Position numbers and translations under genes: made by a program
In this document: piece after piece, positions 10,116 through 11,485 of the stretch
How positions within the stretch are numbered: the first letter of the stretch is position 1
Layout of the letters: each line of letters starts with the position of its first letter
DNA from: Escherichia coli
GTDB taxonomy: Bacteria; Pseudomonadota; Gammaproteobacteria; Enterobacterales; Enterobacteriaceae
Strand: one strand, 5' to 3'
Assembly: GCF_024502345.1 (NCBI RefSeq)
Contig: NZ_JALDNN010000001.1
DNA length: 64,000 bases
The notes under the pieces: model-generated
The model's input: the letters and a program-made list of their open reading frames with translations, nothing else
The model's database searches: none
What the model was told of the DNA's origin: nothing

Positions 10116-10150
10116 GGTATGCCTGATGTTTGTGGAACAAAGAAGGCTAG

Positions 10151-11346
10151 GGAAGGTGCGAATAAGCAGGTCATTTCTTCCCAAGCTGACTCGCTGATTA
10201 AAATTTCGCGGATCTGGGCCGATTTTTTTCCCGCAAACACATCGAATCAGCCTATTTAGGCTATTTTTTCCACCATTTCTGGCGTTATTTCCGGTTTTTA
10301 CTGAGATCTCTCCCACTGACGTATCATTTGGTCCACCCGAAACAGGTTGGCCAGGGTGAATAACATCGCCAGTTGGTTATCGTTTTTCAGCAGCCCCTTG
10401 TATCTGGCTTTCACGAAGCCGAACTGCCGCTTGATGATGCGAAACGGGTGCTCCACCCTGGCACGGATGCTGGCTTTCATGTATTCGATGTTGATGGCCG
10501 TTTTGTTCTTGCGCGGATGCTGCTTCAAGGTTTTTACCCTGCCGGGACGCTCGGCGATCAGCCAGTCCACATCCACCTCGGCCAGCTCCTCGCGCTGTGG
10601 CGCTCCTTGGTAGCCGGCATCGGCTGAGACAAATTGCTCCTCTCCATGAAGCAGATTACCCAGCTGATTGAGGTCATGCTCGTTGGCCGCGGTGGTGACC
10701 AGGCTGTGGGTCAGGCCACTCTTGGCATCGAAACCAATGTGGGCCTTCATGCCAAAGTGCCACTGATTGCCTTTCTTGGTCTGATGCATCTCCGGATCGC
10801 GTTGCTGCTCTTTGTTCTTGGTAGAGTTGGGTGCCTCAATGATGGTGGCATCCACCAAAGTGCCTTGGGTCATCATGACGCCTGCTTCGGCCAGCCAGCG
10901 ATTGATGGTCTTGAACAATTGACGGGCCAGTTGATGCTGCTCGAGCAGGTGGCGGAAATTCATGATGGTGGTGCGATCCGGCAGGGCGCTATCCAGGAAT
11001 AATCGGGCAAACAGGCGCATGGAGGCGATTTCGTACAGGGCATCTTCCATGGCACCGTCGCTCAGGTTGTACCAATGCTGCATGCAGTGAATACGCAGCA
11101 TGGTCTCCAGCGGATAGGGCCGTCGGCCATTGCCCGCCTTGGGATAAAACGGCTCGATGACTTCCACCATGTTTTGCCATGGCAGAATCTGCTCCATGCG
11201 GGAGAGGAAAATCTCTTTTCGGGTCTGACGGCGCTTAGTGCTGAATTCACTATCGGCGAAGGTGAGTTGATGGCTCATGATGTCCCTCTGGGATGCGCTC
11301 CGGATGAATATGATGATCTCATATCAGGAACTTGTTCGCACCTTCC
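10151..11346 (-). mobile_element. IS5 insertion sequence (complete)
   Basis: Terminal inverted repeats ggaaggtgcgaataag (10151-10166) and cttgttcgcaccttcc (11331-11346) flanking a 326-aa IS5 transposase; length 1196 bp. Confidence 0.85.
10298..11278 (-). CDS. insH: IS5 family transposase
   Basis: 326 aa, [35 protein letters not shown]..., DDE transposase of IS5. Confidence 0.9.
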
Positions 11347-11485
11347 TAAGCTAAAAATGTGATTTAAGTCAAATCAGCAATCGGGGAGTGAAACAGATAA
11401 TGTTTTTATTGCCCGGCAGAAATCCTTCTCCGGGATGTCTCTCTGGAGCTGAAAAGGATGAATCGTATCTACCGGTTGGTCTGGA

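Follow-up and report, generated by a model that had tools for sequence, protein, structure and literature searches.

A complete ISKpn26 copy without target duplication as the apparent seam between an Enterobacter-type hemB block and an autotransporter module in an Escherichia coli tRNA-Phe island

We analysed a 64,000-nt stretch of the Escherichia coli contig NZ_JALDNN010000001.1 (assembly GCF_024502345.1; hereafter the window), in which a complete copy of the insertion sequence (IS) ISKpn26 stands directly upstream of a hemB gene and lacks a target-site duplication (TSD). The comparisons below indicate that this IS is a seam in a mosaic island, at which a hemB-tau block of Enterobacter type is joined to an unrelated autotransporter module, and we consider it very probable that the junction arose by IS-mediated deletion or fusion of two unrelated island modules. 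The main value of the result is a correction: an IS that seems to disturb the promoter of an essential core gene turns out to be a seam within mobile island DNA, and the hemB beside it is a second copy, foreign and redundant. The missing duplication flags the fusion of modules in a mosaic island, of which this case is a clean worked example. The event itself is an ordinary kind of IS-mediated rearrangement; TSD-less ISs are familiar from rearrangement junctions, mosaic tRNA-Phe islands are familiar too, and no new mechanism is involved. The set searched for the junction, for the hemB allele and for the partner flanks comprised 5426 complete E. coli genomes, of which just 17 carry the window allele of hemB and 16 share the junction.

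The element and its missing duplication

The junction consists of the following features:

10151–11346, minus strand: complete ISKpn26 (IS5 family), 1196 bp, with exact inverted repeats and 99.8% identity to copies annotated ISKpn26
10298–11278, minus strand: intact ISKpn26 transposase open reading frame (ORF), 326 aa, from the ORF list; RefSeq coding sequence WP_001547740.1 lies at the same place in ECONIH4
10147–10150: left flank CTAG, canonical YTAR, native to the Enterobacter-type hemB upstream region (conserved empty site GGCTAG/TGTACC)
11347–11350: right flank TAAG, not YTAR, start of the autotransporter module (IS-free metagenome contigs, with homology from exactly 11347)

ISKpn26 is described as a 1196-bp element of the IS5 family that generates a 4-bp target duplication (PMC8023600). 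The window element has this length, a single DDE transposase of 326 aa and 16-nt terminal inverted repeats that are exact (GGAAGGTGCGAATAAG at 10151–10166 on the plus strand and GGAAGGTGCGAACAAG at 11331–11346 on the minus strand). These two were the only inverted-repeat matches in the 64-kb window, where 0.07 would be expected by chance, and the repeat GGAAGGTGCGAAYAAG is found at both termini, as ISKpn26 and the IS5 family require. The Pfam domains DDE_Tnp_1 and DUF772 are present on the orthologous transposase products, and RefSeq labels copies of 99.5–99.8% identity ‘IS5-like element ISKpn26’. With IS5 of E. coli K-12 the element shares the family, the terminal 12–16 nt, the target rule and the 4-bp duplication, but it is only ~92% identical to a genuine IS5 copy and is 1196 rather than 1195 bp long. 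Hence the name IS5, used in the original prediction, gives way to ISKpn26 on the evidence of the RefSeq label and of this low identity, and the placing of a complete element at 10151–11346 upstream of hemB is borne out by the exact inverted repeats, with a spacing of 35 nt to the ATG. IS5 proper does occur nearby in the genome VREC0864, at a different site and with a TTAG duplication.

The 4-mers that flank the element, CTAG and TAAG, differ at two of four positions and form no 4-bp duplication, as had been predicted. The same prediction named what would overturn it, namely IS ends misplaced by 1–2 bp and hiding a perfect duplication, and this was tested on further copies from complete E. coli genomes, whose ends were set by the same definition, GGAAGG...CCTTCC. 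Of nine other ISKpn26 copies, seven have perfect 4-bp duplications (TTAA in three, CTAA in two, CTAG and TTAG in one each), all of them YTAR, and under the same definition an IS5 copy is flanked by TTAG/TTAG. Moving the ends by 1–2 bp to regain a duplication was rejected because the same ends give perfect duplications elsewhere, and since the end definition holds in these copies the missing duplication is real. The two exceptions among the nine lie at visibly rearranged sites, such as rcsA'-IS-fliR' (TTAG/TTAA), so that the other TSD-less copies of ISKpn26 are likewise found at deletions. In every structural respect, down to the canonical YTAR sequence of its left flank, the window element is an ISKpn26; whether a duplication is present depends on how a copy was inserted, not on the element. 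It differs from typical copies in lacking the 4-bp duplication, in its off-consensus right flank and in three private substitutions (positions 582, 677 and 848, compared with all other sampled copies), which are common only to the orthologous copies in 16 related genomes.

The two flanks and their empty sites

A simple insertion into contiguous DNA would need an IS-free locus of the form GGCTAG/TAAGCTAAAA. A joined-flank query found no such empty site in the complete E. coli genomes, where both flanks are confined to the same 16–17 genomes. For the left flank, the exact HemB protein was looked up in public assemblies, which gave three loci without an IS upstream of hemB (L003, L004 and L006). 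Their upstream sequence reads ...GGAACAAAGAAGGCTAG/TGTACCTCAAAGTGAAGACAGG...; beyond it come 455 nt of intergenic DNA, a yaiT-like autotransporter gene of 925 aa, yaiV and ampH. The left empty site in IS-free relatives is GGCTAG/TGTACCTCAAAG, and most Enterobacter species representatives, like the E. coli island variants L001, L005 and L012, also continue from CTAG into TGTAC. The window instead reads CTAG-IS-TAAGCTAAAAATG, whereas a simple insertion would read CTAG-IS-CTAG-TGTACC. The comparison with uninterrupted hemB upstream regions that the original prediction had proposed as a check thus yields CTAG followed by TGTACC in the IS-free loci.

For the right flank, an IS-free form was not found in the 5426 genomes, and a search by way of autotransporter homologues and plasmids gave only upstream regions that are not homologous. 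A DNA-pattern scan of metagenome contigs returned 10 contigs, six of which break inside or at the end of ISKpn26. The other four, from gut metagenomes (L099, L100, L101 and L103), have no IS at the junction and read ...ATAAG/TAAGCTAAAAATG; their homology to the window starts exactly at 11347, and IS3-family ends or remnants, variously arranged, lie to the left of this point. The empty sites of the two flanks are thus unrelated, so that the CTAG and TAAG flanks were never contiguous and the IS is a seam, not an insertion into contiguous DNA. This agrees with the suggestion, made from the window alone, that the IS marks a recombination or deletion breakpoint, which now rests on the unrelated empty sites CTAG/TGTACCTCAAAG and ATAAG/TAAGCTAAAAATG.

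Missing TSDs have been attributed to decay, to IS–IS recombination and to adjacent deletion, mainly to the latter two, and insertion into a break has been proposed as well (PMC11708052). Decay would here mean a simple ISKpn26 insertion with a normal 4-bp duplication that was later altered by point mutation. One sampled copy (L092, TTAG/ATAG) may carry such a decayed duplication, and decay is among the recognized causes; but two of the four flank positions differ in the window, every IS-free locus has TGTACC after CTAG, and ATAAG and IS3-family ends stand before TAAGCTA. Because the two empty sites are unrelated, decay is excluded. The window junction instead resembles the TSD-less ISs at IS–IS recombination or adjacent-deletion junctions, for example those of the long-term evolution experiment (LTEE; PMC11708052), in having a complete IS, precise termini and non-matching flanks that are non-contiguous in relatives. 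It differs from the LTEE-type cases in that modules were fused inside a mobile island and no core chromosome was deleted, and in that neither ancestor nor intermediate is at hand.

The region upstream of the autotransporter gene is an IS graveyard whose arrangement is different in each context. Another ISKpn26 copy lies in L100 (567–1766; human gut metagenome), 420 nt upstream of the same autotransporter gene; it is flanked by TTAA/CTAA without a duplication, and IS30 and IS3-family remnants come after it. This type of copy was considered as the direct ancestor of the window copy by adjacent deletion, which is unlikely, as it belongs to a different subtype at positions 1012–1024.

Origin of the hemB-tau block

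To the left of the IS the window contains:

1–10150: captured Enterobacter-type block with mmuP, mmuM, tauABCD, the acyltransferase gene and hemB; it reaches past the window start, and the homology ends at 10150
7289–9013, minus strand: lysophospholipid acyltransferase family gene, 574 aa, between tauD and hemB
9141–10115, minus strand: hemB (porphobilinogen synthase), Enterobacter-type allele, RefSeq WP_000130706.1

In the E. coli K-12 core locus tauD is followed by hemB with no acyltransferase gene between them. The order tauABCD-hemB of the window resembles this locus, and the block could accordingly be taken for the E. coli core 8-min region, with the IS parting core from accessory DNA and disturbing the only hemB of the cell. 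However, the window hemB shares only ~83% identity with the hemB that essentially all 5426 genomes have, and the block has the extra acyltransferase gene, as in Enterobacter. The order tauD-acyltransferase-hemB is common to Enterobacter, Lelliottia, Leclercia and Citrobacter, the adjacency of mmuM and tauA is likewise that of Enterobacter, and the acyltransferase is 98% identical in amino acids to those of E. asburiae, E. vonholyi and E. chuandaensis. The window DNA up to 10150 is 94.8–95.4% identical to E. asburiae and 99.3% to L003, which is itself collinear with E. asburiae over all 8975 bp; the exact HemB protein also occurs in IS-free Enterobacter-type loci. Homology of more than 20 species of Enterobacter and related genera stops at 10150 or within ~25 nt of it. 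From gene order and identities together, the hemB-tau block is Enterobacter cloacae-complex chromosome captured into an E. coli island.

The identical junction of IS and flanks is present in 16 complete E. coli genomes of varied serotype, and all of them have two hemB places, one with the window allele and one with the standard E. coli hemB. Moreover, the block lies between tRNA-Phe with integrase and cadC, or beside pheV (see below). A core 8-min origin thus has next to no chance of being right, and for the 16 related complete genomes it is refuted. The original prediction that the IS separates the tau-hemB block from an accessory region has to be revised in the same way, as both sides of the IS are inside a tRNA-Phe island and the block itself is foreign.

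Two genomes depart from the count of two hemB places. CAVP776 has three, and VREC0864 (NZ_LR536431.1; L001/L017) has only one, the island-borne hemB of Enterobacter type. In VREC0864 the standard hemB is either missing from the linear record or replaced by the island copy.

The tRNA-Phe island

The island is anchored by two features of the window:

39806–39881, minus strand: tRNA-Phe in pheV context (followed by yqgA and speC), attachment site of tandem islands; found by ARAGORN, with tRNA-Phe-yqgA-speC collinear in G3/10 at 99.2%
18782–20044, minus strand: island integrase (tyrosine recombinase), from the ORF list; the integrase region of ECONIH4 and G3/10 is 99.9–100% identical

In ECONIH4 and VREC0864 the genes mmuPM-tauABCD-acyltransferase-hemB lie between a tRNA-Phe (pheU) with integrase and cadC or yjdJ, the pheU context being dicD/dsbD ... 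cadC, while G3/10 and the window carry the same island at pheV. The island content is thus found at two tRNA-Phe loci, pheU (ECONIH4, VREC0864) and pheV (G3/10, window). Because the block stands between tRNA-Phe plus integrase and cadC or yjdJ, it is inside a genomic island. Core genes of the pheU side next to the block had raised the possibility that 8 min and 94 min were joined by a large inversion or translocation of the chromosome; this was rejected, since cadC on the other side of the block places the block inside the island. In the window the 20-nt 3' tail of tRNA-Phe is repeated at ~20242–20261, adjoining the integrase, and a tandem second island occupies ~20291–39797, between the repeated tail and the tRNA-Phe gene.

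In its P4-type tyrosine integrase next to tRNA-Phe, its repeated tRNA 3' end, its tandem arrangement, its heavy IS load and its occurrence at both loci the island resembles the mosaic tRNA-Phe (pheU/pheV) islands of E. coli. It differs from other such islands in its cargo, which includes a second hemB within a stretch of over 13 kb of housekeeping-type Enterobacter chromosome. Hence DNA for taurine and S-methylmethionine utilisation and for porphobilinogen synthase circulates in E. coli on a tRNA-Phe island at pheU and pheV. A literature search found no paper on this island or on its Enterobacter-derived hemB-tau cargo, which is a gap in description and not a new kind of biology.

Order of events and routes to the junction

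In VREC0864, L005 and L012 the same block is present at 99.94% identity and runs ~485 nt past CTAG, through the native intergenic region and into the start of the yaiT-like gene, where it is truncated by an IS903-like remnant. Because these three keep the native sequence past CTAG, we infer that the island had captured the block by the time ISKpn26 severed it at CTAG. The junction is identical at pheU and pheV and in 16 genomes, which points to one old event that would then have spread with the island, and the three private IS substitutions agree with this.

The order of events bears on the alternative that ISKpn26 itself captured the Enterobacter DNA, in which an island or plasmid carrying ISKpn26 beside the autotransporter would have formed a replicative cointegrate at the CTAG upstream of hemB in an Enterobacter chromosome, followed by imprecise excision that took hemB-tau-mmu with it; CTAG and TAAG would then be the flanks of the first cointegrate junction. 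A cointegrate junction has the same anatomy, with the target 4-mer on one side and the old flank of the donor on the other; replicative transposition is possible for IS5-family elements (PMC11708052), and all Enterobacter homology in the window ends at the IS end. Nevertheless, the block in VREC0864, L005 and L012 reaches past CTAG and is bounded by a different, IS903-like remnant, which places it in the island before ISKpn26 and makes capture by the IS improbable.

With the block already in the island, the fusion of modules may be pictured as follows. ISKpn26, or one of its ends, would have targeted the canonical CTAG that lies 35 nt ahead of the foreign hemB. What followed CTAG, that is TGTACC..., the rest of the intergenic region between hemB and the yaiT-like gene and neighbouring island DNA, would then have been lost, and the right IS terminus would have become fused exactly to the TAAG that precedes the autotransporter gene, leaving a complete IS with non-matching flanks. 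Two routes could lead to this. Two ISKpn26 copies in direct repeat, the first at CTAG and the second at TAAG, may have undergone homologous recombination, whether they belonged to a single island or to islands in tandem; or a single ISKpn26 copy may have caused a transposase-mediated adjacent deletion (intramolecular transposition). The mechanism is narrowed largely to these two, which we regard as about equally likely, each falling somewhat short of an even chance. The precise joining of both IS termini points to transposase chemistry at some stage. Recombination certainly acts on this very ISKpn26 copy, because a hybrid of it exists: in L019 (2695–3889; GCA_008041615.1) the first ~358 nt are of IS5 type and the remainder is identical to the window ISKpn26, with TTAG in an etk fragment next to appA on one side and TAAG with the autotransporter on the other. 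This hybrid indicates a chromosomal rearrangement by recombination between IS5-family copies.

Four observations weigh against the fusion of modules as set out here. The right flank TAAG is not YTAR, so that both routes need an off-consensus transposition or a later loss of 1 nt. The simple-insertion intermediate CTAG-IS-CTAG-TGTACC and a partner ...TAAGTAAG-IS were not found in the 5426 genomes or in the contigs read. The IS of the window shows no mosaic pattern of single-nucleotide polymorphisms that would prove recombination. Finally, consensus promoter scans gave no candidate above threshold in the native hemB upstream region or at the IS–hemB junction, whether native, IS-borne or hybrid. 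The original prediction had recommended a search for the partner flank elsewhere in the genome; the search made here covered the complete E. coli genomes, and the hypothetical partner junction ...ATAAGTAAG/ISKpn26 is absent from all 5426 of them, while the junction genomes lack the native TGTACC... side.

The off-consensus right flank has a ready explanation if a deletion passed through a double-strand break that took up ISKpn26: the target would not have been cut in a staggered way, no duplication would arise, and a site not chosen by the transposase need not be YTAR. An IS at a deletion without a TSD has been reported for an IS5-family element in E. coli C, and insertion into a break was proposed for it (PMC11708052). 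However, this mechanism is itself still a hypothesis, the CTAG to the left of the window copy matches the canonical target perfectly, and the precise joining at either end of the IS fits transposase chemistry. We therefore regard break insertion as very unlikely, and IS-mediated deletion or fusion of the two modules remains the preferred reading.

Consequences for hemB expression

The hemB ATG is at 10115 on the minus strand, 35 nt from the IS. Because only these 35 nt of native upstream DNA are left, the native −35 element and probably the −10 element must be gone, and we infer that the native hemB promoter has almost certainly been displaced, as had been predicted. For the IS-derived or hybrid promoter that the original prediction had suggested, the consensus scans gave nothing at threshold, and a candidate promoter picked out by eye, ATGACC-19 nt-TAGCCT, is too weak to be proposed. 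The transposase gene and hemB are co-directional, both on the minus strand, and no terminator-like site was found on this strand between the transposase stop codon (10298) and the hemB ATG. On these grounds our best guess is that hemB may now be driven by read-through from the transposase gene. In the 16 related genomes the own hemB of the host covers the essential function, and the physiological stakes are therefore low.

Activation of promoters by IS5 is known for bgl, glpFK and flhDC. As in those cases an IS5-family element stands directly upstream of the gene here, but at 35 nt it would remove the native promoter rather than relieve a silencer, and activation of hemB finds no support here. 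Two unrelated E. coli strains (L013 and L091) carry ISKpn26 at the same TTAA site upstream of flhD, which recalls the IS5 and IS1 insertions that activate flhDC.

In E. coli islands three different ISs have inserted independently ahead of the foreign hemB, within ~30 nt of one another, namely ISKpn26 at −35, IS30 at ~−52 and IS5 at ~−62 from the ATG; the IS30 is in L005 and L012, ~17 nt past CTAG, and the IS5 is in L001, ~27 nt past CTAG. No IS was found at this upstream site in ~25 Enterobacter-type chromosomal loci. The cluster could be a neutral A+T-rich hot spot, or it could reflect selection on the expression of a redundant essential-pathway gene. We consider it unlikely that selection in E. 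coli rewires the second porphobilinogen synthase gene, silencing it or driving it anew. In VREC0864 the island copy is apparently the only hemB; if so, a xenologue carried by an island would there have taken over the function of an essential core gene.

The autotransporter gene and the remainder of the islands

To the right of the IS the module begins with one gene:

11458–14536, plus strand: autotransporter gene (1049 aa in ECONIH4), frameshifted in the window; RefSeq coding sequence in ECONIH4 and G3/10

Homologues of the autotransporter carry the Pfam domains AC_1, Pertactin and Autotransporter. Compared with the 16 related genomes the window has a 1-nt insertion near 11508, which leads to a stop after ~25 codons, and the gene is ~70 nt shorter in the repeat region at ~13483–13555. 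It is probably a pseudogene in the window genome.

Further along, the region 16411–18015 of the window is without ~10 kb that are present in G3/10 and ECONIH4 and that comprise IS66 and IS3 remnants, an HNH endonuclease gene, a group II intron, IS110 and a capsid-like gene. A complete IS30-like copy lies at ~15651–16872. In the tandem second island, three minus-strand ORFs at 21128–27122 (1038, 402 and 518 aa) have the sizes of a type I restriction-modification system and are a candidate for one.
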